Positions 11,619 to 36,003 of a DNA stretch of 64,000 nucleotides are shown piece after piece. Source of the DNA: Trypanosoma brucei (taxonomy: Eukaryota); assembly GCA_000002445.1 (NCBI GenBank), contig CM000208.1:3072001-3136000 (forward strand), in the 5' to 3' direction. Position 1 is the stretch's first letter. Each line of letters begins with the position of its first letter. The position numbers and the translations under genes are program-made. The notes below the pieces were generated by a model. The model saw only the letters and a program-made list of their open reading frames with translations. It ran no database searches and was not told where the DNA came from.

Positions 11619-11986
11619 ATTCGCAAGAGGTAAGAACAAGCAGATATTCTTTGTATCCAAGTTCCTCCCGCACCAGTACACACGGACTCAGAAAAAATGA
11701 AGGATTTCGCCCAACCTCCACTTCGCTCACCCCTTCCCTTGTCCCCACTGACCCTGCTTCACTTTTATTCGATAACTCATTTCAAGCACACAGAAGGGAA
11801 AAAGAAAGCAGAGCGGTTCCCGCGCAACTTAGTTATGGGAGGTTTACTTCCAACCAACTGGGGCGATTGGAGCCGCACTACCGCACATTCAGTCGTTTTG
11901 GAGGGGAAATAAATGACACAAAAGAGACTTAACGGTGTAAGCACCCGTGGCTGAAAGTGTTTCTCGCTGTAAGAAGCACTTGAGGG

Positions 11987-12877: not shown

Positions 12878-13255
12878 CCCACAGTTGGTCCCCCCTTTAT
12901 TCCTACGGCGCGAGGCCCATTAACGTTAGTGACAACAAACAGTCAGAGAACGCGTGGGGAAAGATATGACAAAGGAAACGACATCAGCAGCACAGTTTTC
13001 AGTTTGAGTCGTGGAAGGGATCCCCAAAAGACAACACATCCTCATTTTCGCATTACAAAATACATCAGGAACACTACGATAAAGGTAAAGTAACACATGG
13101 ACAAAGCACCGCAGGAAAAAAAAAAGAAACAAAACAAAATGCGATACAACGTTTGAAGCATAATCATGACGGCGATGGTTCACCATCTTCGCTTCCTTGG
13201 TTATTGTTAACTAACTGCGAAAATAGATATACTCACGATAACGAAAAGGGGGAAG

Positions 13256-15118
13256 CTAGGTTCCCTGTCCAGTGTTACCCACCAGGCGGTGGGATTTGCA
13301 AACTGCCGCTAAACCCAATGTGAATCCCATACTGGGTAGAAACTCGGCCATCACTTCGAGGAAGGGAATGAAGATATAGTTTATGAACGACGTCTGTCCC
13401 TCAGCAATCATAGGGGTTTGGCGGTCCATGAACGGACTACATGACATACCCAGGGATCGCTCCCGGTCACCTTGCGTGTAGAACTCGTCGGACACCCTCT
13501 CGCTCCATTTAAGGTATAACGGAAGTGGACGACAACAATTCGAAATATCAGCCAGCTTTAGTGCCATCGCCAATGCGAGGTTCTGATCACAATCCTCCGT
13601 AAAAGGCCGCTTCTCGCTTAAACGACGCTTAAATTGCGTCATGTACTTCTCGTGCAAAGACATGTCAGTGGCCAATACCATGTCGATAACGGTATTTCGG
13701 AAATCTCGCCAGTGTTCCTCAGAAAAGCACGCCAAAATATTTAGCGCCGGATTTCTCATTAACTCAAATACGCTAGCAACGTGCATATTTTCCAGCACAC
13801 TACGATCATTGTAAAGCGTGGCGTTGTACGTTTGCGTCAGTATACTAAAGTTGTTGTTAATGCCGGGGTGATTGTAATCGTGAATAGCCGCCGCAAAAAG
13901 GGCTGCAAGCACTTGCCTGTCGTTCAACTTGCATAGCTCCGCCAGACCGCCTTTGCTTAACAGATAGTGTGTGATATGAAGCACGTCTGCCGCGTGCATC
14001 GAGTTATGATACGGATTAGCATGGTATCCACCTTCGACGGCACTGAGCCAGTTTAAAAAAATTCGCTCGTTGATTTCAAATTTACGAAGAAAACCATACT
14101 TGACTACGAGGGCGTACATTGTTATAAATAGTGCGCCGCAGCCAGATTGATCATTCTTGCAATTGATATCGTCCCCATCAATAGCTGCCTGAAGCTCAAA
14201 CACGTTGTAGTCCCAATCGTCCAACCCGTTTAATGCCTCCCAAACCATTTTGTGTTTTTTGCTCATTCGACTAAGACGTTCAGGTAGTTCTGACTCAGTG
14301 TAGGGATCAATCAAGCAGTTTGAAGCATTGCAAGCCTTCGATCCTTCAGTTTTTGGCCACCTACTCTTGATTAGCCGTAGAAGTTCCACATCGTATTCCT
14401 TGCACTCTTTCTTCTCGAATACCAGGCGGAGAAGTTTCCTTTCCGGTATATACGAGTCTTCGGCATGTGGACCCGAGGTTTCTCCGACACTTGTCTCCGA
14501 CACTTCCTTTGCTTTTGGGTTAATTTGATTTGATAAACGGGAAATATTGTCTCTTAATTTTCCAATCTTAAGAGTATTCTTGGTGTCCTGCTTTCTACGC
14601 CAAATATTGTTCTCACACAGCACGCGCACTTCCTCTTCCAGCATTCTCACCTGCAACTTTGCCTTTTCCAGCTCCTCCATTATCTTTTGAACTTTGTTTT
14701 TCTCCTCCTTAGGGTTTGCGTAAACGGCATTCGCGTCAACCAAACATTTGAGAATCGTCGCCGAGGTATCTTCCTCAGTTTTTTGAATGGGAAAGCAGAG
14801 CGCACTCTTCTCGCTACAGTCCTCTTTGCCACAAAGAATGTGCGCAGTATCCTCCGATCTTGCTAGAATGCTAACGCAATTGCCATTGAACGCATTCCGA
14901 AGTACGTCAAAGAACAGTCCCCACCCAGCATCTTTCCCGAGCTGATATTTGATCGTCTCTAGAGCCTCTTCACCAAAATTGCTTTGATAAAACTCACCAT
15001 TAGTGGTCGCCACGAAAAGCGCAAGCTGCCGAGCCGAGTTATCCATCTTGGCCATAGTAGAGGACCCATCAGATGTAACGGCAAACATGGTCGGGCACTT
15101 TCGGAGCGCTTCCAACAT
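13256..15118 (-). CDS. PDEA: Class I 3',5'-cyclic nucleotide phosphodiesterase, 620 aa
   Basis: The C-terminal catalytic domain carries the class I PDE metal-binding signatures YHNSMHAADVLH and HDYNHPG. The track ORF begins at a TTG. The first ATG (MLEALRKCP…) gives 620 aa, the size I recall for TbrPDEA, and it sits immediately upstream of a PKA catalytic subunit gene. The symbol relies on that recalled size and gene order. Confidence 0.85.
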   Translation of the reverse strand: MLEALRKCPTMFAVTSDGSSTMAKMDNSARQLALFVATTNGEFYQSNFGEEALETIKYQLGKDAGWGLFFDVLRNAFNGNCVSILARSEDTAHILCGKEDCSEKSALCFPIQKTEEDTSATILKCLVDANAVYANPKEEKNKVQKIMEELEKAKLQVRMLEEEVRVLCENNIWRRKQDTKNTLKIGKLRDNISRLSNQINPKAKEVSETSVGETSGPHAEDSYIPERKLLRLVFEKKECKEYDVELLRLIKSRWPKTEGSKACNASNCLIDPYTESELPERLSRMSKKHKMVWEALNGLDDWDYNVFELQAAIDGDDINCKNDQSGCGALFITMYALVVKYGFLRKFEINERIFLNWLSAVEGGYHANPYHNSMHAADVLHITHYLLSKGGLAELCKLNDRQVLAALFAAAIHDYNHPGINNNFSILTQTYNATLYNDRSVLENMHVASVFELMRNPALNILACFSEEHWRDFRNTVIDMVLATDMSLHEKYMTQFKRRLSEKRPFTEDCDQNLALAMALKLADISNCCRPLPLYLKWSERVSDEFYTQGDRERSLGMSCSPFMDRQTPMIAEGQTSFINYIFIPFLEVMAEFLPSMGFTLGLAAVCKSHRLVGNTGQGT

Positions 15119-17226
15119 CGCCAACAGGGTACAATCCGCTCTCCTGGTTTCCCTAACTCCCTCCGTTTCTATCCCGCCAACCCCTCGCCTCTGGCTGAAG
15201 TTGCTGAAGGTGATGTCACACCTCCCGAGTTCCTAATAACCAACCGCCTCACCCCCGTATAGCGGCCTCGACTCTAACTTAGGTGGACGAAAAAAGAAGT
15301 TGAAAAGTGAAATCATAAACAAGCAGTGGTAGAAGAGTAAAAACGCAAACATACCCAACGTGGAAAAGCAGCTTCCACATACCCCGACAGAAGTAGTGAA
15401 CTTGTATGGCAACGAGAAGGATAAATATAAAGATACACAAAAATTAATGTGTACGATATTTACATATACATGTGTGCACAGAGGCGGAGAACACCCTAAA
15501 TAAGGAAAGATTAGAGAATAAAAGTGTGCGGACGACCCCGCACCACACAACTAACTCAAGGTAGCACAACTGCGCCCTTTTACCCTCTCCTTCTTTCTTC
15601 ATTGGTTAGGTTAAATGCATTACGTTATTTCCCAGCATAGGCATTCGAACAATAAATACAGAGAAAAAAGAAAAAAATTAAACTAGACAACGGCATTCAA
15701 AGGCATGTTGGACTCACCCCTGCCGTGCAGTGCATCTCAGTTCGCATCACTCAGGGAAGCAGACAAACGTGTATATATATATATATATATATATACTAAA
15801 ATAACTTAGGGCATAACATGGAAACTTGGTCAAAAATTACACTTTCGAAGGGAAACAAAAAGAAAGAAGGATAACCCCATTCATTCAAACGAAACAATGA
15901 GCCCCCACCAGCCACGCCGGCACGAAGTGGTGGCCACACCGATTCGAGGACACAACGTATGGACAGGTAAGCGCCACAAAAAAATGTCTGATTTCTGTCA
16001 ACGGAGCGAAGTGACCAAACAATCAAACAGAAAATGTGGGTGGAATGGTGCGAAATCAGTTCCTCGGGTTTGAGAAATTGTGGGGACGCACACCATCTCA
16101 GTGCAAGATCCATCTTGCAAGGAGCACTCGAAAGTTCATGCAACACAGTAAAGTGAACGTGGACACACAAACAACATCAATGTTTCCTCATAGCAGCAAC
16201 GCGGATTCGGTAGTGCTGCGACGCAACAAACAAAGGTTAATGGGTACCTAATAGTCGGGGTACATAACTATTTTGAGCGAGCGAGCGGAGTCCCTTCCAA
16301 AGCTTCCTCGGTTTTAAAATTGCCTGCAACGCTCATAAAAACACATATCCTCAAGATACCCGGCATTCGTCCACATCTAACCACCATCACCCTCTCGATT
16401 GTGAAAAAGAGCGATCATGTAACCGACTGCTTACGCGCACCTGGTGTTGCAGACTCACATCCACACGTCTCCCCCCGGTATTTCAGAAGAAGTCAAAAAC
16501 GGGAGAATAGGCCGCGCATTTCAGTGTGATCAAAAAGTTCAAAGCAACACTGCCATTACGTGCTTCCGTATTCTTACCCGATTTTATGCAGCTATAAAAA
16601 GATACGAGATACAACAACTTCCACCCTGGGACTCATATTTTACCCAATCGATGTATTTTTCACAATCATTTAGCATATAACAAACCCACTGCAGTATCAG
16701 GCACAAAAACAAATATATGTTGTCACTGTCCCCTCTCCCGTTTATTTCCGGGCGAACCCATTACCGCTGTCCCTGCCCACTGTGTGCATATTACTTTCTG
16801 CACCCTCACCAACACCTTTAGTTCGACCCCTCGCACAACCCGAAACGAAAGTTCACATAATCTATAAGGAGGGTAAAAGCATTCAACTGTATGATGGCAA
16901 TTCTGTGACGGAATAAAAAAGGGGCTCCTCAAAGGGGACAATCACATTCTCTAAGTAAGAGCCTCTGCTGTACTCCTCGTTGCTTTCGCAAACGAAATAC
17001 TTCTAACATGTGCCTCACCCCTCCTGCGGCACTTGAGGAGACAGCTTTGGCTCATGCCATTCTCCCCTTTGCTGCTTCTGACACTGCCAAACACGAGCAC
17101 GAAACCCGGAACCTGGCTTTTTGTCAACAGCAGAAAGAAATCACAGAAATCGGCTATTAGCAACAACATCTTAAGGGGTGCAAACATCACGGCTGTTGAT
17201 ACCGTTAAGGACGTCAAAGGAAGTGC

Positions 17227-18240
17227 TCAGATCCTCGTGTATTCACCATCGCAAAACCCCGAGAATAACTCCTGCTGTGCCTCAGTCAAAGGTTGAAGTG
17301 GATGGCGAGGACTTTCTGGATAACGATCGAAGTACCTAGTGTCACCATCGTTGTTTAGACGCACGTGAATGGGAGCGGCGACACCTCTCTGTAGGAGAAC
17401 GTTCCAATTAACCCCACTGTAGAACTTGTGTCGCTTAACGTCCTGCACACCACGTTTTACTGACCCAAGGCGTTTCGTTGGTTCAATTGTTAAAAAACTC
17501 TTTATGAGGTCCTTCGCCCGCATCTCCACCCACTTTGGAAACTGAAGTTTCCCCTCTAAAATTTTTTCGTATGTTCTAAAAGGACTCTCGTCGAAAAAAG
17601 GAGGATAACCGACAAGCATCTCATAGAGAAGAATTCCGAGTGTCCACCAATCCACAGCCCGATCGTGACCTTTACTTTGGATTATCTCCGGCGCAAGATA
17701 CTCTGGAGTCCCACATAGCGTGTACGTTCTGTCCCTAACGCGTTTCGCGAACCCAAAGTCCGTAATCTTAATGTTTCCCTGCTTGTCCAAAAGCACATTT
17801 TCTGGCTTCAAGTCACGGTATACGATGCCGCACTCATGAATATATTCAAACGCCAAAACCACTTCTGCGGAGTAGAACTTGGCTACATCATTAGGGAATT
17901 TTCCCGCCTTCCGGAGGTGGGAGAACAGCTCGCCACCCACCACATACTCGAGGAGGAGGTACAATCGGTCATCATCCATAAAACCTTTATACATTGTCAC
18001 AATAAATGGATGGCTCAACTCCTGTAGAATACTCGACTCGGCCAGTATATGGTCTACCTGTTTCATACGCAAAATTTCCTGCTTTTTAAGAATCTTCAAA
18101 ACAACGTATTGTCCAGAAGCCCTGTGTCTACATAGGCGGACGCGCCCAAAAGTACCGGTACCTATTGTCTCTCGGATCTCCAGGTCTTGCAGCTTCCAGC
18201 TGGACACGTCCTTCCTTGTCAGGCACCCATCCGACTTCAT
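17227..18240 (-). CDS. PKAC3: cAMP-dependent protein kinase (PKA) catalytic subunit-like AGC kinase, 337 aa
   Basis: The full ePK catalytic core is present: GTGTFGRV, VLKIL, HRDLKPEN, DFGFAK, GTPEYLAPE, DWWTLGILLYEM. The C-terminal AGC tail ends in an FxxF motif (…EAQQELFSGFCDGEYTRI). The similarity is closest to PKA-C. The symbol is assigned from its position next to PDEA and its 337-aa length, both from recall. Confidence 0.85.
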   Translation of the reverse strand: MKSDGCLTRKDVSSWKLQDLEIRETIGTGTFGRVRLCRHRASGQYVVLKILKKQEILRMKQVDHILAESSILQELSHPFIVTMYKGFMDDDRLYLLLEYVVGGELFSHLRKAGKFPNDVAKFYSAEVVLAFEYIHECGIVYRDLKPENVLLDKQGNIKITDFGFAKRVRDRTYTLCGTPEYLAPEIIQSKGHDRAVDWWTLGILLYEMLVGYPPFFDESPFRTYEKILEGKLQFPKWVEMRAKDLIKSFLTIEPTKRLGSVKRGVQDVKRHKFYSGVNWNVLLQRGVAAPIHVRLNNDGDTRYFDRYPESPRHPLQPLTEAQQELFSGFCDGEYTRI

Positions 18241-18404
18241 TTCCTATCCCTTAGACCCGTAATCGGGACCAAATATGCGCAGGAAGCTAGACTAAAGGTT
18301 TAATAATACCGCCACAGCGGATATTACTCTTTCCTCTCAACAACTTCCCGTTTCGATGAAGCTCGCTTCCCCGTGTCACACCTTTCAATACACGCTGTCC
18401 TGTT

Positions 18405-18450
18405 ACCGTTTCTTTGGAGAGGAGAAAAAAGGAAAAGAGGAAACTGCAGA
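18405..18450 (-). promoter_or_regulatory. Polypyrimidine tract plus AG: candidate trans-splice acceptor for the PKA-C mRNA
   Basis: The plus strand reads ggagaggagaaaaaaggaaaagaggaaactgcag, which is a 34-nt polypyrimidine tract on the minus strand. It lies about 170-200 nt upstream of the ATG at 18240, and an AG follows immediately downstream on the minus strand. Confidence 0.35.
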
Positions 18451-18624
18451 TACCCTCGTCGCCGAAAGCACAATGTTAAGAAGGAGAAGTACTTTATACG
18501 CTAAAAGATATTCTTCATGGGCATGCACGTGACAGACATTTATGAATGTCCTCCGAATGCATTTCTCTCACGGTTTCGAGGGAGAAATCGTCAAACACAG
18601 CATAAAACAAATGAAAGGTATCTT

Positions 18625-21372
18625 TCATCCGAATAATTTGGCCAATCTTACGGCACCCGACTCTTGGACAGAATTCCATCCTTCCTCAATTTGACGCAAA
18701 GCGTCAGTATCCCCTTTTGCTCTGTCCTTCAACTGACTTAACAATTCCGGTTCAGAATGACGGCGACAATCCGCACCCGCCGTTTTCCAATCGCCACAAA
18801 GGACATAGTATTCCATTCTCCATTCTATTTGAGGAATTTTAGGTATGTACTGTTTGGCTTGCTGTCGCTGACAATTGGCAAAAAGTGCTCTCACAAATGC
18901 AAAACCACTAACAGGGGACCTACCTTTGCCTCTAATATCACTTATCTCATCGACAAGATTCCACTGCTTTGTTTCCACAGCTGCTTTTACCATACACCAG
19001 GTATTCATTTTGTCGGAAACTCCAAACTTGTTCTTAATACGATCGGCAACATCCTTGCAACCATGCTCGTGGCAAAGAGTAATTGTTTTTGTGACACTGG
19101 CATCCAAGAAACGACGATCCTTTAGTTTCTTTACCAGATTTTTTTGTTCCTCCATGAGATCCATGTGCAGCCGAAGCCATTTTTCGCTGTCAGAGGGTGG
19201 TCGGAATGAACCTGAAAGCAGCGAGTGGGAGTAAGTGTTCCCACTCAAACCGCCTTTCGAAGGTATATTTACAGTACCCATTGTGCATGACAACAGCGTA
19301 GAGCGCACAATATTAAGCTTGATTACTAGCAAGTCCTCACAACTTTGACCCCCCTCCCCACGTTTACCGGTAGAAACCCTTACCTCCTCGAGGTACCGTA
19401 AAAGATCCAAGTAAGCGCAGTCATCTGGGTATGTCTTAAAGATTTCCATCACTTTACTATTCGTCACTCTCGCTGACTTGGCAAATACGAACAGCATTCT
19501 CCTTGATGTGACGAACTTCTTCAAGAGGGTCAACGCATCACTGCTTTCAGAGGAAATCAAATATTTTATGACCGTAAAAATTAATCCTGTATCACCCGAC
19601 CTTATAGCTTGTCGAAGCCCCTCTTCCAGTTGATTGATTTGCAGCAAGTGAGATATTCTCTCCGATACTGATGTTTCAGCCTCGAGTACAGCAAGAGCCG
19701 CACTTACTTTCTGACTGCGATAAAGTTTAAGCGCAATTTCGCAATATGCAGACTGCTTACAGCACTTTAATTTGTCCACAACTCTGGAGACCAGGCGTCC
19801 CTCATCTGCCTGCGAGACGGAAGAGTTCGTTAACATCAGCATCGCCCACTCCATCATGACATCCTTGGCGCTGAAACCCAGTAACTCACACACATGATAT
19901 GCAAGTTGGTGATAATTCAGCAGTGCGAGTCGCCTTACTAATTTCTCTTTTAATTCTGACAACTGCGCTTGGGATAACAACGTCCCTGCTTTACTCTTGC
20001 ACAACATATTAACCGCTCGGAGGTGCCGAATAACGTCAACGAAAACATCAGATTCGTACATTGCACAAAACGACTTACCGAAGGCTGCTACACGCATCAA
20101 TCGTTTCTGCTGCGATACACTCAACTCGAATTTGGCAGCGGCGATGCAATCGTCCACTGCCTCGGAGAGCCCATGTTTGTCCCTTTGCAAATCACGGATT
20201 ATTTTCACAGAGTTGGCGTTTCCACACATAAACTCATCATATGCCGATAACAACATGGCGGATTTAGCTCGCGATCCCACAGAAAAAATACGTCGTACGG
20301 GCTCGGGTACAACCTGGAGAAATTGATACGAGCGAGCTGAAAGAATCCGCACACCATCGCATTCAGGAACCAGGTGGGCATCGACCGGAATATCGTTGAG
20401 GTAATCTGATTTATCCGGATCATCGACACTGAGTAAACTGAGAGTCGTTGGAAAATTAAGCGCAGCATCGAACTGCTTATTCCGATGCAAGTACGATATG
20501 CACCTATCCCCACACCACATAAACTGAGATGGTATTACATCTGTGTTTATGTTCAAAAGACGTGTGATATCATCAAAAGAACGTGAAGCAACATATACTG
20601 TACCATCACGAACCATAAAAGCCACACTTCGGCCGTTGGGAGAAAGCGCCATATGAACAAAATTCCCACCTTCGATGTAAACACCCAGATCGTGGCACAT
20701 ATACTTTTCGTGAAATACGATATGATAAACGGTCGAAGCGTTTTCCGTTGTAACAAAAGGTACAAAAATCTCGGTATGCCCACTATCGCTAAATCGCGGC
20801 GGTACTGCTAACATTGAACAAGGTTTATTATCATGAAGCAGACGAGGTATTGAAATCGAGACCGCTTCGTACCCCTCAGTACTGCCGCTCTCAACCAGTA
20901 CCAGTCGGAGTTCCTGAAGTCCTACAAGCAAGGCAACACCGGCTTCGGTGCTAGTACATAAAGATGGTACTGGAACCCTCAGAGACGACCCAATAGGTTC
21001 TCCTCTAAAATTAAAAAAACGCAGCGCCCCAGAATTAGAAACGACTATAAGATTATCTTTGGGATAATCCCAACATGCAAACATTAAGTTTGTCATATCA
21101 TCCATATATATTTGCGGAGATAAAGGATGTGGTGTCCCGTTGGCGTTGTAAAGTTTGATAACGCTTCCCCTACTCCCCGAAGAAGATACATTACGATGAT
21201 ACAAGGCCAGTAGTCCACCCGAACGACAATAAGCAATATCATACCTGAAAAAGTCAACGTCCAGTCCCCACAGTAAATCATCAAAGTCAACAAGTCGAAC
21301 TACATTTTCTCGACCAAGAGCTATCCATGCGCCAACCCTTGCAGTTCTCACAAACCTTCTTGGACGTGACAT
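18625..21372 (-). CDS. VPS16: Vacuolar protein sorting-associated protein 16 (HOPS/CORVET core subunit), 915 aa
   Basis: Recalled human VPS16 blocks line up: [24 protein letters not shown] with [36 protein letters not shown] with [36 protein letters not shown] with [24 protein letters not shown]. The N-terminal [18 protein letters not shown] resembles FYRKYELY…APYGGPIALL. There is no C-terminal RING, which separates it from Vps8/11/18. Confidence 0.8.
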   Translation of the reverse strand: [915 protein letters not shown]

Positions 21373-21617
21373 AGGTTGGCTAATAAGTTAACAATATTAA
21401 AAATTGGGGGAAAATATTTCTTTAAAAAATTAATTGAACATGCACACCAAATTCAGCTTTTCTTTCAATAACAAACGTGTGTGGAAACAGTACTAATGTA
21501 CAACTCCATTTCATTACATACATTTATAGATACGCATACGTAGTCATAATGTGTAAAATACATCGCAAACATATAGACACGCACTCAATGGTAAATAAAG
21601 AAAAAGCGGTAAGTACG

Positions 21618-23858
21618 TTACTCCCATTCTAGAGGAACAACACAAAAAAGGGTTAAAGAAAACTGCACATCTTCATGTACACACCTAGCGCGAGGAACTA
21701 ATCTATATGATTCCTGAGGCTTCATCGTTACGTCCAAATTGAAAACAACAAGAATATCTGACCTAAACTCCGTTAACCATAAGAGGTCATCACCGCCAGG
21801 ACACAAATAACAAGCACTACGTATTTCCAAGCCAACACCAACGGTTCGTTTGTGGTTTGGTATTTGTGATATTGCCACAACGAAATTTCTAACTGTTATA
21901 TCAGTTTTATTTTTAATCACGAACGACGGGCCCAATTCTGACCCTTTCCTCCACCAGTCCTTAATTGTTTTAAGTTCCGGAGGGGAAAGTGGAACGAAGT
22001 CAAAGCAATCCAAGCACGTTGCGCCCAAGGTACATGGGAAAGGAGCAGAGGAAGACACAGTTACCTGTAACGATTCATTTCCTTTGAGTAACACCACTAA
22101 ACCAACCTCACCACCCTTGGCCTTTTTAGTAGAAAGCAATTCATTTCTGGGACAAACATCACATCTTCGCATTCCCCCCAACCCGTCAGCCGAATATTTG
22201 AAAATATGCAACTGAGTCCATTCATCATGCATTTCATTATCTCTACTAGACGCTCGCACGACCAACACTACCTCTTTCTCCGAATTGCTGTTATTTGAGA
22301 GGAGAAACGAAGGATTACTAGCAAAAGTTGACACAGTATCCGATCCTCCCAGACAACAGCACGGATACTCAATCACATGTCTGTGAATATAGAGTGGATC
22401 ACCGTGAGGCCAGAGAAGTAGGCCAATTCGTTCGAAATACGATATTGCATGCTCTAAGTGCATGCTATTGGATGGAAACTCTACTATACCATCTTTCACC
22501 AAATGTGGAGTAGCGCCGATATATTCAATTGGTTTATCATTCAAGGAAGAAAACCGTACCACACACGTATATCCTGAGTCAGCGTTAGGAGCCTCCACTG
22601 CCGTCAGAAGATAAGGTGTAAACGGAATAATACCAATTTCTTCCAAGCATCTAAAGGCTCTTTCAATCTCCGGATTCGCATGAAACGCAACTATTCTCTT
22701 TTTACGAACACAATCTTTCAAGAATCTGAATATATCAGCTACACTAACATGTTTCTTCAAATTCTTCATTTGAAGTTCAAAGCAGATACCACCGGTCAAG
22801 CACGAGAGGGCATAACCAAGACCAACTCCTGTAATATTTTTGTACCCGCCGTGAAGTTTTGCAAAAGCCTTCTCTACTAAACATCCCCAATAGTCACCAC
22901 TGTTGCTTTCATGGTGAATACCCGCCGGACGATCACCGATCATCGGAATAAAGTCATCAATAACGACCTCTATTGGAGTATCACCGGAAAAAAAACGAAA
23001 TGCGAAGGCTCCTATGCAAGGAAGTTTCCAAATGCAAAGGTTCCTAAGCAAATAAGAAACCTGTTGGACCACACTAAGGGCAGCACGAAGGTTAGAAGTA
23101 TCATTTATTACTGAGGCTACCAATGGTTTGTCACCAACACAGCATTCGTTTTGATCCCTTTGGTCTTCTACAAGAGAGCTCACCCTCACCCACTTTATAT
23201 CACTATTTTTTAAGGCAGTATCAGGCGGGAAACTATTATCTGTAAATGGGGCACCAGATGTAGCTGCGTTGTTCATAATGTCCCTGCAAGACGCATCGCA
23301 TACCTCCGTTGAGCAATGACATGCTCCCATGAAGCAATCCTCATTCCACGATTCCATTCGCCACCTCCAAATTTTTGCTGTCTCTGGAACAACTGCTTTT
23401 CGCCATCGTGTTTGATTTACTTCCCACTGCATTCTATTTATCTCCGTCTGCAAATGTATTGCATATTCAACCTCACTTGATAAACCAGTGCCAGACAAGT
23501 CGACAACGTGTAACCCTGCACAGGCAACAGCCAAATCCTTTAATGCAGCACCGGACGTGTTATCTAAGTGTACGTTGCACAATACGAGACGTGTAACCGA
23601 ACTGCTTCTCAGAACAGCAAAAAGACGTACTAACTGATCGGTTGGTACTTGCATCCCACTGACATCTAACACCTCAATCTCAGACCGCCTTTCAAGAAAA
23701 TGAATGACACAATCGAAAAATTTGGACGAATAGACATACCTGCTGAGATTCAGTTCGTTGGGAGATTTTTCCAAACCTTCCAGCAAATCTGAGTATACTT
23801 TACAACCCAACCACTCAGAGATATACCGGTACTCCTCAGCCACACTAATTATTTCCAT
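21618..23858 (-). CDS. Calpain-like protein with N-terminal leucine-rich repeats; catalytic residues apparently substituted (pseudopeptidase), 746 aa
   Basis: The calpain domain II signature is conserved: VVIDDFIPMIGDRPAGIHHESNSGDYWGCLVEKAFAKLHGGYKNI…LSCLTGG, compared with VVIDDCLP…[21 protein letters not shown]…FTGG. The QGxxGDCWLLAA active-site Cys block is missing. The GHAYS His block reads FTPYLL. The N-terminal 150 aa look like LRRs (LDVSGMQVPTDQLVRLFAVLRSSSVTRLVLCNVHLDN…LHVVDLSGTGL). Confidence 0.75.
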   Translation of the reverse strand: MEIISVAEEYRYISEWLGCKVYSDLLEGLEKSPNELNLSRYVYSSKFFDCVIHFLERRSEIEVLDVSGMQVPTDQLVRLFAVLRSSSVTRLVLCNVHLDNTSGAALKDLAVACAGLHVVDLSGTGLSSEVEYAIHLQTEINRMQWEVNQTRWRKAVVPETAKIWRWRMESWNEDCFMGACHCSTEVCDASCRDIMNNAATSGAPFTDNSFPPDTALKNSDIKWVRVSSLVEDQRDQNECCVGDKPLVASVINDTSNLRAALSVVQQVSYLLRNLCIWKLPCIGAFAFRFFSGDTPIEVVIDDFIPMIGDRPAGIHHESNSGDYWGCLVEKAFAKLHGGYKNITGVGLGYALSCLTGGICFELQMKNLKKHVSVADIFRFLKDCVRKKRIVAFHANPEIERAFRCLEEIGIIPFTPYLLTAVEAPNADSGYTCVVRFSSLNDKPIEYIGATPHLVKDGIVEFPSNSMHLEHAISYFERIGLLLWPHGDPLYIHRHVIEYPCCCLGGSDTVSTFASNPSFLLSNNSNSEKEVVLVVRASSRDNEMHDEWTQLHIFKYSADGLGGMRRCDVCPRNELLSTKKAKGGEVGLVVLLKGNESLQVTVSSSAPFPCTLGATCLDCFDFVPLSPPELKTIKDWWRKGSELGPSFVIKNKTDITVRNFVVAISQIPNHKRTVGVGLEIRSACYLCPGGDDLLWLTEFRSDILVVFNLDVTMKPQESYRLVPRARCVHEDVQFSLTLFCVVPLEWE

Positions 23859-24106
23859 TTAATTACTTCCTTTGCGTTTTGAAAGCGAATATTGAGGACA
23901 TAAAGAGGGAGAGAAAGTACCGTAAGCACAACACGCCACTCCCGGCCCAGGGATAACAGAAACTATATTCATCAATTGAAAAGTAGATATCAAAGGTTTC
24001 AATGTCCCCCAGAGTCAGAGTAGAAGCAAGCCGTTGCGGGTGTCAACGGCGCTGGTAACGCAAACAAGTAAAAGCGAAAAAATCACGTCCCTATCGCAGT
24101 CACCCT

Positions 24107-24136
24107 CCCCCCCCCCCCCCGCAAAAAAAAAAAAAA
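24107..24136. repeat. Homopolymer pair C14-GC-A14 inside the divergent strand-switch region
   Basis: Read directly: ctcccccccccccccc g c aaaaaaaaaaaaaa. A GC-rich block follows at about 24290-24500. Confidence 0.9.
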
Positions 24137-27100
24137 CGTCAAGATCGGCCGCGCGTTGAGACAAGGCAAATAAACTAAACATGGGAAAAGAAAAATTTGT
24201 AGAAGCAAATGAAAACGCACCGCACACGAGCGGTGCAGAAGTACAGAGGTAGCTGGTAAAGAAAAGAAGTGACGCCGGAACGCGCGCCGCCATAGGCTAA
24301 GTAACAGCCCCCTCCACACAACCCATCTCGTGGACCGCAACGGCGCCCCGGCTGCAACGACCACGACCAGGCGCACCACGATCGGACACCCCGCCGAGGA
24401 AAGAAAACAAGGGGCCCCTACACAGCCTCGCCGCAGTAATCCGGAAATGCGCAGCAACCAACCGTCGCAGAGAAGGTTCCATTGCCCAACTCCGCCGCTA
24501 GAAGGGGGAAGGGAAAGAAACACGTAACGCCGCGCCAGTTCAGCTCTTTAGAGGGCCCAAACGGTATGGTCAAAGGAAAACCTGCTACGGGGAAGAGATT
24601 GACAGACGGTTGGTAACTGTCTCGACCTGTTCATTTCGGCTGCGTGTTACCCAAAGGGAGGCGGTACATATTCGGGTAACTGCCAGTCGTTATGTGGTTT
24701 CCGAGGTTTGTAGAAGGAGGAGGCCGAAACGGTATCAGCTACGTTACCGATTTGTGGTCGGTGAGCCGCCAATCCTGCGTTTGCTTGTCTTCGTAGGTCG
24801 CCAACATTTTCAACATCGACTTTGACACACCTTGCTCAGCTACGAGTCTGTTGGTGACTGGACTACGCGACCTCGGCGGTTGAAAGCGAAGGTGAACACT
24901 GGGGCGGGTAAATAAAAGAAGGTCAACTCCCGGACGTGGGCAGGCGGGTCGTTAACTTCGGCCGGTTTGTTAGCAGTTGTGGCGCTACTGTTTAAACAAG
25001 TGGAGGGGTGTGAGACGACACCGCGCACCCAACCATGGGAGGAGTACATCGGTGGAAAGCAGACCCAAAGCGCTTACCGACATTGTGAGAAAGCGATGTC
25101 AAGAGAGGGGAACGAGTGACAGTGCCCACAAACTTTTCATCTCTTTCATTGGCTTCAAAAAAAAAAAAACAAAAAAGGGTCCTCTCAGAGTAAAGGGAAA
25201 GACTACGCAATCAGTATGGACCAATATGATAAGATCAACTGTAAGGAAGAAACCCCGACGGAGGCAACCTGATGCCACAACAAACTTCGGCGTGGAAGAC
25301 GGGAATCATTACGGCTCCGAAAGGGTGGAAGGGAAGTGAAGAGGGAAACAGTTTGAGAGTGATTAAGAAGCTACATCATGCCGTTGTGAACCCGTGGGTT
25401 ACACCCCACTCCCGGTGGTGACTTCTTCAGAACGAAAGGAAATAATTGTTTAGTTGTGAACAGGGGAAATTGAGTTAGTCGGTTGTCAAACGTGCGCAGC
25501 AGTGGAAAATGGGTTGTACGGCAAAAAATGAAGACAGTGTTCCAGAGATAACACGGGCAATTCCCCCAAATCACACCTAACAACACTGTCAATGATTCCT
25601 GCTTATTCACCAGGAAACGACGTCAACACCACGAGCAATTCGACACATGGGTCTGATAATGTCCTCAAGGCACTACACTGTATAATAATGGAACGGCTCA
25701 GCAACTAACCTCATGATAAAGATCAAAAAGTGGGAAAGAAGGGCAGCATTTGAACGGCTAAAAATAACAAATAAGGTAAAAGACACAAGGGGAACCACAG
25801 TTGCGACATCTGTGTTGTGGCTTTTTGAAAGAGACAAATTGCACTTTGGAAAGCGACTCCCGTGTGGTTTGATTCAGCCTCTTCACGCCCCTTTGCGTAC
25901 GTATATGAGGAGCTTGGATGCGTTGTGAGAAAGCGGTGCAACTTTGAAGAGTGTGATACGGACGACAACTTATCAGCTACTCGAAAAGCTCGTAATGTCC
26001 ATAACAAAAATAAATCCAGCGTATATTGAGACAGGAACGGTAAACACCCCAATGGAAACGGGAAGGGAAATGGATGCACAAAGGTTAGTGTCTTGTGTTA
26101 GCTTCCGGATTCGCAACGGGGACAACGTCGGCGAGGTAGTAGCGCACAGAATTGCAAAACGTTTAGTGAAGCAGTACGCGTCGTATGAAGGTGGCACCTG
26201 TTATCCAGGATATGATGTACCACGCTTGGTGGATGTGGATTTGTTCGTTACGGTTCACGATTGGACAAGAGGAAGAGGCTTTGGTGGTTGGATCCGAAGG
26301 TATTATAATTTATGAGGGCGGACTCGAATAAATAGCTGGCTCGGGTTTCTTAAAGGTAGTTAAGTCATACACACTAAACACGTGGAAAGGATCCGGAGCC
26401 GCATCTGGTCGTAACAGCATCATCGTCAAAGCGCATGTTATCGAACTTCACCATCTGTACGGCGGGTTGCGTGGCGGTGAAGTAAACACGTAACTGCCAT
26501 GACAGACAAAGCTGGTAACGCCAGAGGTTCCAGCATACCCTTCCCTCATTGTCTGTCTGGGGATGCTGTGAAGAGTGCAACCACTTGCTCCTTAATTTGT
26601 GCTGCTGCATTCATTGGTTATACAATGCCATCGTTGTTAGGTGAGGTTGAAATGTTAACAATGTGATGCGTAGCAATGTGAACAGAAAGTGCCCTTACAT
26701 CGCCGACGAAACTGAAAAGGTTTGGAGTGCACGTCTGATTTCTTTACACCCCAGTACACCGTCAGGTACGTGGTTCACGTTGGAATGGGAAGGGGCGGCG
26801 AAATGGCGAGGCATTTTTGTAATCTTAACGGACCTTGTACGTTTACTGTCTTCGTATTCGCGAGAATACACAACGTTACTTTACAAGTTATTGCGCGGCA
26901 GAAAGAATGATGTTGAAGCAAAGTGGCGCGGATCGTGCACCCACGAAACGGTGGGGACACGGAACTTTCCAGTTCTACGACGCAGCTTCATGTAAGCGAT
27001 GAGGGAGTAGCTTCATCCCCCTCTAGTAAGTGTGGACCTTCAGGCGATATATTCTTACCTTCACCGACGTTCGGGATGAGGACGGCGGTGTGGACATTCT

Positions 27101-28574
27101 GACACGGGTGACCCGGTGGTATTGACGGCTCACAATCAAAAGTTAGGGTTTAGTTGTGCTATGAACAGGATGCACAAAAAATGTGCGGGAAAGGTGGCGT
27201 TTGCCGACTTTCATTTGTACTATAAGTGAGTCTGCTCTGCGAGAGGTGAGTCTATGGGAGCAATGTCCTGTTGTTTCGCGGAGGGCGCCATATTTTTTGC
27301 GCTTGTCATTGTGGACCGATGGTGTCACAGTCACTGCACATATACCCTCTGACTTAACAGCACGGAGAGTCACTTACGTACCGGATTATATGCCACATGT
27401 TTGCCGTGCGGTAGTCGCCTTTACGTCACCTTTTATTTTCATGCTTTGCTTTCCGTTGGCACACCGCTGCTTGCCCCATGGCATATTCTGTGGATTTGTT
27501 GGGAGATGAGACAGGCTTGTGCCCAGACAAACGTACCGTATTTGAAGTCCAACCTTCTATTCAGACAGATAATACTCGCCATCAGCTTACCGAAGTGATG
27601 TTAACTGATGAGTTTCGGTGTAGGGCTGTGTTTTTTATTCAGAGAGTTGAAGTGCAATTTGTGTGTCAGGGGCGCCGTTTTCATACCCTGTACATATCGC
27701 AAAGGTGGGTGGATGGAAATGATTATTTTTTTTCTTTGATGCAAAGGAGCACACTTTGTTCTAGTCGTATCACGCGTAGGTGTGCAGAGGTTACGTTTGA
27801 AGCATATTACCCAGTTCGTAAAGCACGCTGAAGACATTGAAACACACATCACCAGCTATGTTGATTGACACCACCAGTAGACAAAGCTGACCACTGCGCG
27901 TGAACACTTTTTCGCACATGCCAAATTCTTTAACTATAATACCTATGAGGACGCGGTGTGTTTAGCTTAGTGGTAGTTTATGGAAGAGGGGGGCCATGCT
28001 TGTAGGAAATGCTACTTGGTAGTTCGTGTGAAGGCTGTAAAGCTCGTGCAGTTGAGCTGATTGCCAACGGTGTACTGATGCTACGTCAGCGGTGAGTAAA
28101 TACTGTTTTATTCGATACTTCTATGTTTCAAGGGAGTTTCTGCTGGATGGTAGTTTTTCACATTTTTTACTTTCCTTTCCTACACACGAAGTTTACTGTT
28201 GTTGGGAAGCAACTATCACGTGCATCGCCGTGGTTATATAAATGTTGTGTGCATTGGAAGTGGTTGCCCAAACTCCCTCACTACATGAAGGAGGAGGCAT
28301 GCGTCCTTAGTAAACCCCGAAACACTTGCCTGTCGACGTGCTTCGCGTGACGTGAAGAGGGAGTTTATGTCGGTCGTCTGCCCTCTCCCTCGGGGCCCGA
28401 CCTGAAATGATGCTGGGGATGTTTAGTATTTCTTTGCTTCTGTACAGTTTTCTATACGTGTACACCCTTCGTCGCGACGGGCCCCACATGTTTGAGCACA
28501 GCTATTGCAGTCCAGAAAGCCCTGTCGCGTTGCATGACTCTCACTACCCCCTGGCATAAAATACTACCAACAGT

Positions 28575-28597
28575 GTGTTTTCCTCTCTGTCTTTTAG
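28575..28597 (+). promoter_or_regulatory. Polypyrimidine tract plus AG: candidate spliced-leader trans-splice acceptor for the adenylate cyclase mRNA
   Basis: The run gtgttttcctctctgtcttttAG lies about 165 nt upstream of the ATG at 28764. Confidence 0.4.
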
Positions 28598-28763
28598 GGC
28601 ATAGCAGTTTCGAGCCATACAAATCCTTTTAGCTGCCACCGCGCGTTGACGGGGCTACCGCTGCAAGACACTGCAACGACACACATATACAAATATATAT
28701 ATCACAACCTCCTGATCTAGGAAACGGTTCCCTGGTGACTGCAACTGGATAAATCCTTCCGCC

Positions 28764-31700
28764 ATGAAAGCACCAGCCTTGCTGTTGTTTTTACTGTCAG
28801 CATGTGCCGCATCGCCGCCGACGAGGGAAGCCGGGGGTGTACAAGTAACCGTGACAATTGTGTCTCTGATGTACAGTAAAAACTGGCCTGCTGAGTACAT
28901 CAACGCTGTCAATGCTGGTTTTAACGCATCCCTGGCCGCGCGGAACTGGGTGGTAGCGCCTGGGGTTAATGTTTCGGTAGTTCCACCCCCGTCGTACGAC
29001 ACCCCAGCATATCAGCACCTGGAGAAGTACTTAGAAAATGTAAAGGACGATAACAGCAGTATGGTGGTTGTGTTGGGTCCCATGGGCGAAGAGAGCAGCT
29101 TTGCCTCGTATGATACCCTGAAGAAACACGGTCTTGTCGGATTCGCTCCTATGACTGGGGCTGCGGGTTTTGAGACTTACCTTCCACACCTCTATTTTCT
29201 TCGCCCTGGTTTTACGGGTGAACTCATAGCCCTTATCCGTTATGCCGTGACTTACCTGCGCGTTCTCCGGTTGGGGTTTACCTACCTTGAAGGTATGATG
29301 GGGGGTACTACCACATACGAGAATGCTGTGGACTTTTTGTCACGCATGGGATACACGTTTTGTTGTATTTTCACAGTGCACGGGACAGCCGAAAGGCGGA
29401 CGGTAACAGGTAGGGAGTTCGATGTGGCATGGAACGAGTTTGCCGGGAAACTTCCACAGGCTGTTATTGTTGTTGCTACTGTAAATGATGAAATAAAGAA
29501 TTTTGTCAAGAACCTTGTGGCTGATCCACGCACCGCGGATGCGTACCTGTTGGCTCCCTCACTAATGCAGAAGTCGATCGTGACAGTATGGAAGGAGGCA
29601 TTGGAAGCTGCAAATGCCACTTTTGTCCCTCGTCGCGTAATCCAGACAGGCACCAACCCACTTGCCAACGACACAGACAGTCGTGCCATTAGTCGCTTTC
29701 AAGGTGAGATGCGGGATTATCTTACGGCATATGGGGAATGGGCCGGTGTCGACGACGCAGAGTGCTTCCTCAAGGACGACGCAGAGGGAGAACTGATGGT
29801 TGCTGGTTGGCTCGCTGGAGAGGTGCTATCGCAAGCTCTACGGAGCCATGGATGGATGAACAATCGCACAGCTTTCATGGAGTCGCTCTACGAGCAACGC
29901 CGTTACGTCGTTGACAACATCGTTATTGGTGACTTTGGAGGTAGTTGTGAGGACAATTCTACTGATAGCGGTGCCATCTGCCAGTGCAACCGCGGCGGTA
30001 GGAAGGTATACATGAAGGAGATTGCAGAGGGCTACCGACTAAGACCGCTTGTTGGCGGCTACATCGTACAGTCCCAACTGGAGTGTAATAGTGATCCTGC
30101 AATCCTGCAGCCGCCGCTCAGCGGACTCGCCATCCTCATAAATGATCGCCAGGAGCTTACGAGGGCTGTGAAACAGTTTAAAATTGGCACGTCTGCCGTA
30201 TCTGCAGATGGCGAAGACGATGACGTGGACAGGCTTGTCATTCAGGTATTTGACACAAAGGCGCATACCGCTTTCGACGATCTCAAGGCGCTGCAACAGA
30301 GGAAAATTTTAACTGCTTTGTTCGGTGTCGTAACTGAGTCGTTGTTAGAACTCTCAAACGTGACATTCATTGACCCAATGGTGCCAACGCCTCATTTAAA
30401 CACTTTCAACAGGAATGTGATCCGCCTGTCGCCAACATTGGAGCAGCAGCTTTATGTACATGCGACCTACCTGTCTAGCATCCGTGCTGTTAATGTCCAC
30501 TGTATTGTCAGAAGCAACGAAGCGGCTCGCATCATCGACGTGCTTAGGAAGACGTTGATTACCTTTGGTCTGAATCTCAGTTCCACAAAAGTATTGGAGG
30601 CCAGGACCACGATTAGGGGGAATCTACCGACAAGGGGCAGTGTATTTCTCATTGGGCTCGTCGGCACTGACATTGCGGCAATTGAAGAACACCTCCGCAC
30701 ACACGAGAGGACTCTTATATTTGTCCAGTATTCTGACATCGCGTTGCTATACAATGAGTTTGTGCAAACATTTAACAACACTCATACTGCCGAACGTCTT
30801 GTGTTCGCAACAAGTTTACCGCACTGGGCAGACGCCAACACGACATCGGAGACTGTGCGACGGTTCCAGGACGTTATATCTGATGTGGCGCTACGGACAC
30901 CGCTGTCACTGTTGGGTTTTGCCACTGGCAGGTTGATGCAGAGGAACTTGCAGCGTATGCCCAAGGTGACCCCTGAACTCCTGTCCGACCTCTTCTTCGA
31001 AGAAACAGTGATCACTGTCGACGACATGCGCTATGGACCATTCAGGCACTACGATTGCGTAATCAACGATGTCGTTACCGAGGATAATTGTATAACAAAT
31101 TTTGGTGCGGCGGACATCAGTGTGTGGTCGATGGCGCGTGCGCTACGACCACATGAGCCAGTACTGCAGGAAGCGATGTTTCCGTCGATGAAGTATAACG
31201 TTCCTAATGGTAACGCCCTCACCCCCGCACAACTTGCTGGCGTAATCGGTGGGACCTCGGCAGCCCTGTTCCTCCTTTTGGGGCTTGGCGTGCTATTGTA
31301 CTTCGTCCTTCGCGATGGTCGCGACAACGACAACGCGCCCAAGGAACCAACAGACCCGGTGACGCTCATCTTCACCGATGTCGAGAGTAGCACTGCGCTG
31401 TGGGCTGCTCACCCCGAACTGATGCCGGAGGCCGTCGCAGCTCACCACAGCATGATCCGCTCGCTGATTTCCCGTCACGGATGCTACGAGGTGAAGACGG
31501 TTGGGGATTCGTTCATGATAGCCTGCAAGAGCCCAACAACCGCAGTCAAGCTTGTGCTCGACTTACAGGTGATGTTCATGCAGTACGACTGGGGCTCTTC
31601 TGTGTTCGACGATTCGTACCGCGAGTTTGAGTTGCGTAAGGCGGATGATGTCGACGGTTACGCCCCACCAACCGCGCTCCTTGACAGCGCAACGTACGGG

Positions 31701-32393
31701 CAGTACTGGAACGGGCTGCGAGTGCGAGTTGGTGTGCACACCGGGTTGTGTGATATTAGACATGATGAAGTGACGAAGGGTTACGATTATTACGGGCAGG
31801 TTCCCAACCTTGCTGCGCGGACGGAAAATGTGACGAACGGCGGGCAGGTGCTGCTAACGCACGCGATGTACCTTGCACTCAGCACCGCAGAACGTGAGGA
31901 ATTTGACGTGACCCCATTGGGTGAAGTACCGTTGCGTGGTGTGCCGGAGCCTGTTGTAATGTACCAGCTGAACGCCGTTCCCGGCCGCTCTTTTTCTGCA
32001 CTTCGTTTGGACCGAGTTATTGACGTGCTGGAGGAAGGCGGGGACGGCACAGGCACTTCTGGTAGCGACCGCGCGTCAACAGTCATCGAGCTGAGTGAAT
32101 CTGCGCAAGCGATTGCTTCTTCCCTGCTGTCTCTACTGGGGACCCTGACACCCGCACAACGCCACAGGACGCTTATGCTCTTCTGTGAACGCTGGCGCGT
32201 CGCACTTCCTCGTAGCTTGGGCGCCGTATGGGACGATGACGGCTGTCGTGAGGTTATACGGCGCGTCGCCGCAAAGGTTGGTCACGTTGTAGATTTTCAT
32301 TCACTGGGAACGAGTGAGCGCTCGTCAAGCACGTTGTCAAGCGCATCGGTAATTATTATCCCCAATCGGACCACGGATTTTGATAAGTTTTAA
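28764..32393 (+). CDS. GRESAG4: Receptor-type adenylate cyclase (GRESAG4 family), 1209 aa
   Basis: A signal peptide (MKAPALLLFLLSACAASPP) leads into a large extracellular domain. A single TM segment follows (GVIGGTSAALFLLLGLGVLLYFVL). The class III cyclase catalytic domain is present (TLIFTDVESSTALWAAHPELMPEAVAAHHSMIRSLISRHGCYEVKTVGDSFMIACKS … VRVGVHTGLCD…YYGQVPNLAARTEN). Confidence 0.9.
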   Translation: MKAPALLLFLLSACAASPPTREAGGVQVTVTIVSLMYSKNWPAEYINAVNAGFNASLAARNWVVAPGVNVSVVPPPSYDTPAYQHLEKYLENVKDDNSSMVVVLGPMGEESSFASYDTLKKHGLVGFAPMTGAAGFETYLPHLYFLRPGFTGELIALIRYAVTYLRVLRLGFTYLEGMMGGTTTYENAVDFLSRMGYTFCCIFTVHGTAERRTVTGREFDVAWNEFAGKLPQAVIVVATVNDEIKNFVKNLVADPRTADAYLLAPSLMQKSIVTVWKEALEAANATFVPRRVIQTGTNPLANDTDSRAISRFQGEMRDYLTAYGEWAGVDDAECFLKDDAEGELMVAGWLAGEVLSQALRSHGWMNNRTAFMESLYEQRRYVVDNIVIGDFGGSCEDNSTDSGAICQCNRGGRKVYMKEIAEGYRLRPLVGGYIVQSQLECNSDPAILQPPLSGLAILINDRQELTRAVKQFKIGTSAVSADGEDDDVDRLVIQVFDTKAHTAFDDLKALQQRKILTALFGVVTESLLELSNVTFIDPMVPTPHLNTFNRNVIRLSPTLEQQLYVHATYLSSIRAVNVHCIVRSNEAARIIDVLRKTLITFGLNLSSTKVLEARTTIRGNLPTRGSVFLIGLVGTDIAAIEEHLRTHERTLIFVQYSDIALLYNEFVQTFNNTHTAERLVFATSLPHWADANTTSETVRRFQDVISDVALRTPLSLLGFATGRLMQRNLQRMPKVTPELLSDLFFEETVITVDDMRYGPFRHYDCVINDVVTEDNCITNFGAADISVWSMARALRPHEPVLQEAMFPSMKYNVPNGNALTPAQLAGVIGGTSAALFLLLGLGVLLYFVLRDGRDNDNAPKEPTDPVTLIFTDVESSTALWAAHPELMPEAVAAHHSMIRSLISRHGCYEVKTVGDSFMIACKSPTTAVKLVLDLQVMFMQYDWGSSVFDDSYREFELRKADDVDGYAPPTALLDSATYGQYWNGLRVRVGVHTGLCDIRHDEVTKGYDYYGQVPNLAARTENVTNGGQVLLTHAMYLALSTAEREEFDVTPLGEVPLRGVPEPVVMYQLNAVPGRSFSALRLDRVIDVLEEGGDGTGTSGSDRASTVIELSESAQAIASSLLSLLGTLTPAQRHRTLMLFCERWRVALPRSLGAVWDDDGCREVIRRVAAKVGHVVDFHSLGTSERSSSTLSSASVIIIPNRTTDFDKF

Positions 32394-33519: not shown

Positions 33520-33591
33520 GATGGCGGAAAAATGGCCGGATGTCGTGCAACATAACAGTAACACACAGCATCGGGCCATTTTTCCGCCATC
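33520..33591. repeat. Near-perfect 20-bp inverted repeat with a 32-nt spacer (hairpin-forming)
   Basis: Arm 1 is gatggcggaaaaatggccgg. Arm 2 is cgggccatttttccgccatc. The match is 19 of 20. Confidence 0.85.

Positions 33592-35957: not shown

Positions 35958-35959
<2 letters not shown>

Positions 35960-36003
<44 letters not shown>
35960..36003. repeat. (CA)22 microsatellite
   Basis: Direct read. Track ORFs 35859..36179(-) and 36055..36402(+) run through it as poly-Cys-Val (poly-CV, VCVCVCV) artefacts. Confidence 0.95.

Follow-up and report, generated by a model that had tools for sequence, protein, structure and literature searches.

PKAC3, PDEA and the receptor cyclase ACP4 within 19 kb of Trypanosoma brucei chromosome 10: a conserved collinear block and a probable later insertion

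The class I phosphodiesterase (PDE) PDEA is encoded in Trypanosoma brucei by the gene Tb927.10.13000 (PMC4906371). It is single-copy, has been reported as expressed during the whole life cycle, and is dispensable in culture as well as in the tsetse midgut (PMC4561360). Both TbrPDEA and its Leishmania major counterpart LmjPDEA rescue PDE-deficient yeast, yet they display little measurable PDE activity towards cyclic AMP (cAMP), including in lysates (PMC1431542). The gene Tb927.10.13010 encodes PKAC3, a catalytic subunit of protein kinase A (PKA) that forms a heterodimer with PKAR; this holoenzyme is cAMP-independent and is activated by 7-deaza nucleosides and nucleoside analogues, and the depletion of PKAC3 inhibits growth (PMC6440977). 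Receptor-type adenylate cyclases account for 88 sequences in T. b. brucei (PMC7719234). One of them, Tb927.10.13040, has been named ACP4 and described as a receptor cyclase of the flagellar tip that is specific to procyclic forms and binds CARP3 (PMC7719234, PMC9481589, PMC5176191), its expression being procyclic- or midgut-specific (PMC5176191, PMC7719234). Moreover, the ACP3-5 transcripts are responsive to bromodomain inhibition (PMC10269879). Here, we analysed a 64-kb stretch of chromosome 10 of T. brucei TREU927, hereafter the window, in which these three genes lie within 19 kb, and which an earlier note had described as a cAMP-signalling neighbourhood encoding the synthesis of the messenger, its degradation and its canonical effector.

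We propose that this 19-kb span consists of two unrelated stretches of genome history that adjoin each other, namely an old collinear block that carries PKAC3 and PDEA, and a cyclase that was inserted later beside it; we give this reading a probability of roughly 0.85. The arrangement is ordinary and already annotated, all of its components are named, and it holds nothing new in kind. The three genes in question are the following.

13256-15118, minus strand: TbrPDEA (TbPDE1), Tb927.10.13000, class I cAMP phosphodiesterase, 620 amino acids (aa)
17227-18240, minus strand: PKAC3, Tb927.10.13010, PKA catalytic subunit isoform 3, 337 aa
28764-32393, plus strand: ACP4, Tb927.10.13040, receptor-type adenylate cyclase of the GRESAG4 family, 1209 aa

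The open reading frames (ORFs) of the PDE, the PKA catalytic subunit and the receptor cyclase were confirmed at these coordinates and on these strands, and the identities that the earlier note had given them proved right, as demonstrated by their Pfam domains and by exact sequence matches between proteins. The matches are to entries of TREU927 chromosome 10, the chromosome that the note had named. In the program-made ORF list the PDE begins at a TTG (15124), two codons 5' of the ATG at 15118; from this ATG, the protein is identical to TREU927 XP_827786/Q388U6, and at 90% clustering it is grouped with AAL58095, 'class 1 phosphodiesterase PDEA'. Its sole Pfam match is PDEase_I (PF00233; E=2e-78, residues 372-602), so that the protein has a C-terminal catalytic domain and neither a GAF nor any other domain; the class I signature HDYNHPGINNNF at residue 413 identifies it as a class I PDE. 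The PDE found at the syntenic position on L. major chromosome 18 has 631 aa and fits the description of LmjF18.1090 (LmjPDEA) in PMC1431542; the window gene thus corresponds to LmjPDEA in architecture and in position.

The kinase is identical in sequence to Q388U5, 'protein kinase A catalytic subunit'. It carries a Pkinase domain (Pfam, E=5e-75) and the motifs of an AGC kinase, with GTGTFG in the Gly-loop, YRD, DFG and APE, followed by a C-terminal FSGF that conforms to FxxF, and its orthologues in T. congolense, Leishmania and Bodo are 69-88% identical. The cyclase is 100% identical to XP_827790/Q388U2, 'receptor-type adenylate cyclase GRESAG 4'. Two periplasmic-binding-protein (PBP)-like domains, Peripla_BP_A-cyclase_1 and Peripla_BP_A-cyclase, precede a class III cyclase domain, Guanylate_cyc (Pfam PF25495, PF25493 and PF00211), and together with a signal-like hydrophobic N-terminus and a single predicted transmembrane (TM) segment at ~824-850 they make up the architecture of a receptor cyclase.

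The strand layout, which was read directly from the window, separates the cyclase from the other two genes. Between and around the three genes lie the following elements.

15119-17226, minus strand: spacer between PKAC3 and PDEA, 2.1 kb, presumably the PKAC3 3' untranslated region (UTR) and the PDEA 5' UTR
18625-21372, minus strand: Vps16 homologue (Pfam Vps16_N/Vps16_C), with orthologues in the corresponding place at every trypanosomatid locus examined
21618-23858, minus strand: calpain-like cysteine peptidase (Pfam Peptidase_C2), with syntenic orthologues, first gene of the PKAC3/PDEA unit
23859-28763, no strand: divergent strand-switch region, 4.9 kb, no recognisable gene, putative start zone for calpain to PDEA (minus) and for ACP4 (plus)
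32394-37670, no strand: convergent strand-switch region, 5.3 kb, no recognisable gene, putative termination zone for ACP4 (plus) and for the upstream minus-strand unit

The PKAC3 ORF is the next same-strand gene upstream of PDEA, with only the ORF-poor 2.1-kb spacer in between; their adjacency in one unit, as claimed in the earlier note, therefore stands. Within this minus-strand unit, which starts with the calpain gene, PKAC3 comes third and PDEA fourth. The polycistrons of trypanosomatids are not organised by function, and each of their mRNAs is matured by trans-splicing and polyadenylation and is regulated post-transcriptionally. PKAC3 and PDEA would be co-transcribed in no more than a trivial sense, like all the genes of any trypanosomatid polycistronic unit.

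From 1.9 to 64 kb, all ORFs that have a domain or an orthologue are on the minus strand, with the exception of the cyclase, which is the sole plus-strand gene of the window. The distance from the cyclase ATG to the PKAC3 ATG is 10.5 kb, and the Vps16 gene, the calpain gene and the divergent strand-switch region intervene. Moreover, GC skew turns from negative to positive at ~24.5 kb and back to negative at ~37 kb. Given its strand, its gene-free flanks and these two skew flips, ACP4 lies in a unit of its own that apparently holds one gene. We infer that transcription is initiated in the divergent region and terminated in the convergent one.

To compare the locus across kinetoplastids, loci were anchored on the Vps16 and PKAC3 orthologues, the proteins of the window were mapped onto them by tblastn, and a cut-off of E<=1e-6 was applied for the cyclase. 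In addition to the genes listed above, the comparison involves the downstream remainder of the block (8074-12877 as a whole) and the gene on the far side of ACP4.

8074-8985, minus strand: zf-AN1 gene (Pfam), downstream part of the block
9198-11681, minus strand: NSUN-type methyltransferase (Pfam), downstream part of the block
11987-12877, minus strand: ankyrin-repeat (Ank) gene (Pfam), downstream part of the block
37671-41426, minus strand: conserved hypothetical protein of 1251 aa, exact match to XP_827793, with orthologues as the upstream neighbour of calpain in T. theileri and T. rangeli

The adjacency of PKAC3 and PDEA, together with their order and strand, is kept in T. vivax, T. cruzi, T. 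theileri, T. grayi, T. rangeli, L. major and the free-living Bodo saltans. The pair is thus present in 8/8 kinetoplastid loci, whereas the cyclase is restricted to the T. brucei group. In T. theileri, the order PhoD-1251aa-[2.1 kb]-calpain-Vps16-PKAC-PDE-Ank-NSUN runs on a single strand, and T. rangeli has 1251aa-[425 nt]-calpain-Vps16-PKAC-PDE-Ank-NSUN-zfAN1. The same gene order is found in T. cruzi, where the interval between the 1251-aa gene and calpain measures 6.5 kb and contains antisense pieces of a DGF-1 pseudogene (positions 744-7228 of the fetched locus). In T. vivax, an antisense RVT_1 retroelement lies upstream of calpain (fetched locus 111-3234) and the same block follows; in T. 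grayi, where only 50 nt separate calpain from the end of the contig (fetched locus 1-50), the block is again the same. Chromosome 18 of L. major reads calpain-Vps16-PKAC3-PDEA-Ank-NSUN. In B. saltans, an actin-like gene and a 415-aa gene precede PKAC-[111 nt]-PDE, after which come a 528-aa gene and Ank-NSUN-zfAN1. The 528-aa gene (fetched locus 13099-14685, no Pfam match), which sits between PDE and Ank and is absent from all the trypanosomatid loci, was either inserted in Bodo alone or lost in trypanosomatids. The PKAC gene of Diplonema spans 38 kb with no neighbours called and is uninformative for synteny.

No cyclase or cyclase fragment was detected at E<=1e-6 in the loci of T. theileri, T. 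rangeli, T. cruzi, T. vivax, T. grayi, L. major or Bodo; the site can be read right through in three of these, T. theileri, T. rangeli and T. cruzi, and the flank covered was 7.4 kb in T. vivax and 3.5 kb in L. major. ACP4 is present at the site in T. b. gambiense, as indicated by accession order, and in T. equiperdum, where it shares a contig with the 1251-aa gene. In T. congolense, the accession of PKAC3 is CCC94332 and the chromosome-assigned cyclases found are CCC90241/2, CCC91800, CCC93447 and CCC96183, none of them adjacent by accession order; the best T. congolense cyclase shares a 7.4-kb contig with another cyclase, and syntenic neighbours are absent from it. The synteny comparison that the earlier note had called for thus gave a conserved pair and a non-conserved cyclase, the outcome that the note itself had equated with a lineage-specific insertion. 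The same note had allowed that the clustering would be coincidental if the three genes were linked in T. brucei only. This is in substance what was found, since the three genes are linked within the T. brucei group only and their clustering is a coincidence, with the qualification that the pair itself is conserved widely.

The interval between calpain and the 1251-aa gene, which has been altered independently in more than one lineage, deserves a separate remark. It is occupied by ACP4 and ~10 kb of unique DNA in T. brucei, by DGF-1 in T. cruzi and by RVT_1 in T. vivax; it coincides with a contig end in T. grayi and with an assembly break in T. equiperdum OVI, and it is intact in T. rangeli and T. 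theileri. It looks like a recurrent insertion site, open to cyclase, DGF-1 and retroelement sequences, inside an otherwise conserved unit, which is of modest specialist use.

These disturbances also bear on another possible history, in which a cyclase already occupied this position in the ancestor and disappeared independently from the other lineages. The deletion of an older insert could leave traces such as the DGF-1 pieces of T. cruzi, the retroelement of T. vivax, the contig end of T. grayi and the 2.1 kb of T. theileri, and even a lineage as distant as Bodo has receptor cyclases (PMC7719234). However, several independent clean losses would be needed, each restoring a co-directional junction, which in T. 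rangeli is as short as 425 nt, and no cyclase remnant persists in any of the gaps. Moreover, ACP4 is nested in a clade of T. brucei sequences to which a T. congolense gene is the outgroup. We therefore regard an ancestral cyclase at this site as very improbable.

This placement comes from a neighbour-joining tree of cyclases (1168 columns, 200 bootstraps). The nearest relatives of ACP4 are P0052 on T. brucei chromosome 7 (67% identity), GRESAG4.3 (61%) and the T. congolense protein P0054 (58%). The tree demonstrates a T. brucei-only clade, (ACP4,(GRESAG4.3,P0052)), with 100% bootstrap support, and P0054 is its sister, also with 100%. Given that the clade is restricted to T. brucei and has P0054 as its sister, the duplication that gave rise to ACP4 is younger than the split between T. 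brucei and T. congolense. The earlier note had spoken of a recent GRESAG4 dispersal; the lineage-specific duplication is borne out, but not its recency, as the nearest paralogue is only 67% identical. Judging from this 33% protein divergence, the duplication appears lineage-specific but old. The 5' end behaves differently from the rest of the gene: the first 31 residues of ACP4 and P0052 are identical and the first 60 are 93% identical, compared to 67% overall (window 28764-28950), a pattern that probably reflects gene conversion between the two. The duplication probably ran from chromosome 7 to chromosome 10.

The history that we favour would run as follows. The ancient block would have retained PKAC3 and PDEA side by side through general gene-order inertia, without detectable selection on the pair. 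Within the T. brucei lineage, ACP4 would have been duplicated from the receptor cyclase family, with its 88 copies, and would have come to lie, inverted and flanked by ~10 kb of unique DNA, in the interval that separates calpain from the 1251-aa gene. Its arrival would have split a once-continuous co-directional unit, leaving a one-gene plus-strand unit between a divergent and a convergent switch, and the closeness of ACP4 to PKAC3 and PDEA would be coincidental. Such a split seems to imply a new start region for calpain-Vps16-PKAC3-PDEA as well as a new termination zone.

The ORFs of both ACP4 flanks contain no Pfam relics. Nothing similar to the flanks was found in the T. vivax retroelement, the DGF-1 gap of T. 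cruzi, the gaps of T. theileri and T. rangeli, the flanks of the T. congolense cyclase or the rest of the window. Scanning the window for tRNAs and with Rfam gave zero matches, and the strand switches are thus without RNA genes. Several sequence features of the switch regions were also observed. A run of C14 and A14 lies at 24107-24136; on the calpain sense strand it reads T14 then G14, ~250 nt upstream of the calpain ATG, where the divergent switch region has its edge. A polypyrimidine tract and an AG are located ~165 nt upstream of the ACP4 ATG. On the other side of the gene, 1.1 kb 3' of the ACP4 stop codon, positions 33520-33591 of the plus strand carry an almost perfect inverted repeat of 28 nt around a loop of 16 nt; this hairpin folds at -49.9 kcal/mol (z = -8.9 compared to shuffled sequences) and may be a 3' UTR structure or a relic. 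Further on, (CA)22 at 35960-36003 and (TG)11 at 36380-36401 constitute inverted microsatellites ~380 nt apart, inside the convergent zone in which the GC skew changes sign.

Several points weigh against our reading and should be set beside it. The insertion left no footprint, as no direct or inverted repeats bracket the cyclase and no retroelement relics were found, and a trace of the mechanism is thus missing. Gene conversion could partly explain why the cyclases cluster by species. The view upstream of calpain is limited to 7.4 kb in T. vivax and to 3.5 kb in L. major. T. congolense, the closest outgroup, was judged by accession order alone, and the IL3000 assembly of this species leaves most cyclases unplaced (PMC7719234). 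Finally, Bodo keeps the PKAC-PDE adjacency while the upstream genes Vps16 and calpain are not kept.

A functional cluster would be expected to form one transcription unit, to keep its linkage across lineages and to be closer than chance allows. Here, only PKAC3 and PDEA share a unit and the cyclase is on the opposite strand; the pair is kept across lineages and the cyclase is not; and no excess over chance was found. For the latter, a Poisson model was used, the ranges of which reflect genome size and how the cyclase arrays are collapsed. For this locus alone, a cyclase within +-11-15 kb has a probability of 0.03-0.10; for ~6 cAMP-pathway loci, the probability that at least one has such a neighbour is 0.14-0.46. 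The proximity of the cyclase thus fits chance expectation. Moreover, the published expression patterns differ, because ACP4 is procyclic-specific and PDEA is expressed throughout the life cycle. The earlier note had also presented the kinase as the effector beside the cyclase; since T. brucei PKA is cAMP-independent (PMC6440977), the cyclase product does not have PKAC3 as its effector.

For these reasons, we consider it highly improbable that all three genes form a selected cluster, in which shared chromatin or a bidirectional start would coordinate synthesis, degradation and effector. It is true that the three functions of the pathway are found in a 19-kb span, that ACP4 and calpain-Vps16-PKAC3-PDEA diverge from one switch region, in principle a common start zone, and that bromodomain inhibition affects the ACP3-5 transcripts (PMC10269879). 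However, outside the T. brucei group the site is without a cyclase, and the chance values, the unlike expression and the cAMP independence of PKA speak against such a cluster. So does the fact that trypanosome mRNA levels are set mainly post-transcriptionally. The functionally arranged three-gene neighbourhood of the earlier note is therefore not retained.

We also considered selection acting on the PKAC3-PDEA pair alone, for instance through matched dosage or through a link between the kinase and a PDE of low activity. The adjacency and order of the two genes are found in every kinetoplastid locus examined, including that of Bodo, where they are 111 nt apart and their upstream neighbours have changed; this retention is compatible with selection on the pair and is not evidence for it. 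Feedback between PKA and PDE is canonical in animals. TbrPDEA and LmjPDEA complement yeast but show little cAMP-PDE activity (PMC1431542), and trypanosome PKA is activated by nucleoside analogues and not by cAMP (PMC6440977), and both points count in favour of this reading. The depth of conservation is, however, not particular to the pair. The order Ank-NSUN-zfAN1 after PDEA is kept in all the Trypanosoma loci, in B. saltans and, as far as the locus reaches, in L. major, and is thus conserved to equal depth; the other adjacencies of the block calpain-Vps16-PKAC3-PDEA-Ank-NSUN-zfAN1 are as conserved as that of the pair. From PKAC3 onward, this block is at least as old as the ancestor that Bodo and trypanosomatids share. 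Its size equals the published norm, as collinearity between Bodo and trypanosomatids typically extends over 3-5 genes and is broken by Bodo-specific genes (PMC2621209).

Neither the spacer nor the protein sequence offers a sign of such selection. In each of the six Trypanosoma species, the PKAC3-PDEA spacer is 1.86-2.25 kb long, several-fold longer than the spacers next to it (~250-400 nt), as compared to 3.1 kb in L. major and 111 nt in Bodo. Beyond low-complexity matches, no conserved sequence or ORF was found in these spacers, so that in Trypanosoma the length is conserved without detectable sequence conservation. The only basophilic PKA-type site in T. brucei PDEA is RRLS (S501; residues 498-501, ~13616-13627); it is absent from the other 7 of 8 aligned PDEA orthologues, and no conserved PKA consensus site exists in this alignment. 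Moreover, PDEA is dispensable in culture and in the tsetse midgut whereas PKAC3 depletion inhibits growth, and our literature search returned no paper naming PKAC3 and PDEA together. Taken together, selection on the pair alone is unlikely.

If PKAC3 and PDEA were nonetheless a functional pair, PDEA might act on, or make precursors of, the debated nucleoside-type ligand of the cAMP-independent trypanosomatid PKA, and matched co-transcription of the two genes would then be selected. Considered jointly, the possibility that the pair is a real functional one, or, as the smaller possibility, that the ACP4 insertion provided a new bidirectional start for PKAC3/PDEA in the T. brucei group, appears distinctly improbable. 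We thus retain the reading of an old collinear block with a later cyclase insertion beside it.

Two further observations concern genes outside the 19-kb span. The 1251-aa protein has no Pfam match at E<=0.001, and the UniProt names of its identical or near-identical copies conflict, 'Protein kinase domain-containing' in some and 'DnaJ domain containing' in others. At 52478-52540 on the minus strand, a (GATT)n microsatellite followed by (GTT)n lies directly upstream of a UDPGP-family gene; the ORF at 50911-52521, with its TTG start and poly-Cys N-terminus, is an artefact of read-through across this repeat.

Beyond housekeeping, the result matters little; it guards against over-reading the locus as a trypanosome 'cAMP operon'. 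It offers a worked example of how a neighbourhood can arise from a deeply conserved block and a lineage-specific insertion out of an 88-copy family. Moreover, as the ACP4 insertion apparently split one polycistronic unit, it constitutes a natural test case for new RNA polymerase II start and stop regions.

With regard to known systems, the PDE of the window is a known gene of the kinetoplastid PDEA family, which comprises TbrPDEA and LmjPDEA (LmjF18.1090), and does not differ from it. The same holds for the kinase, which is the known PKAC3 of the cAMP-independent T. brucei PKA; its binding to PKAR and its activation by nucleosides are taken from PMC6440977. ACP4 shares with the ESAG4/GRESAG4 family the signal-like N-terminus, the two Venus flytrap (VFT)/PBP-like domains, the one TM segment and the class III cyclase. 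Many members of this family occur in tandem arrays or in subtelomeres (PMC7719234); ACP4 is instead solitary, chromosome-internal and inverted with respect to the surrounding 64 kb.

As in bacterial operons and eukaryotic functional clusters, genes of one pathway are close together here, and PKAC3 and PDEA are in one polycistronic unit. Unlike in these systems, the cyclase lies outside the unit, the three-gene linkage is not conserved and shows no excess over chance, and the published expression differs. A closer parallel is provided by lineage-specific surface-protein genes of T. brucei, for which a location at strand-switch regions is a described pattern (PMC3605285, PMC4413820). Like Fam1, Fam4-7 and the chromosome-internal ESAG6/7 pair, which are found at switches and synteny breaks, ACP4 belongs to an expanded surface-receptor family and is situated at a break in a conserved collinear block, with strand switches on both sides (PMC3605285, PMC4413820). 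The insertion of ACP4, however, as judged from the single-strand arrangement in T. theileri and T. rangeli, appears to have created both of its switches and not to have entered a switch that already existed.

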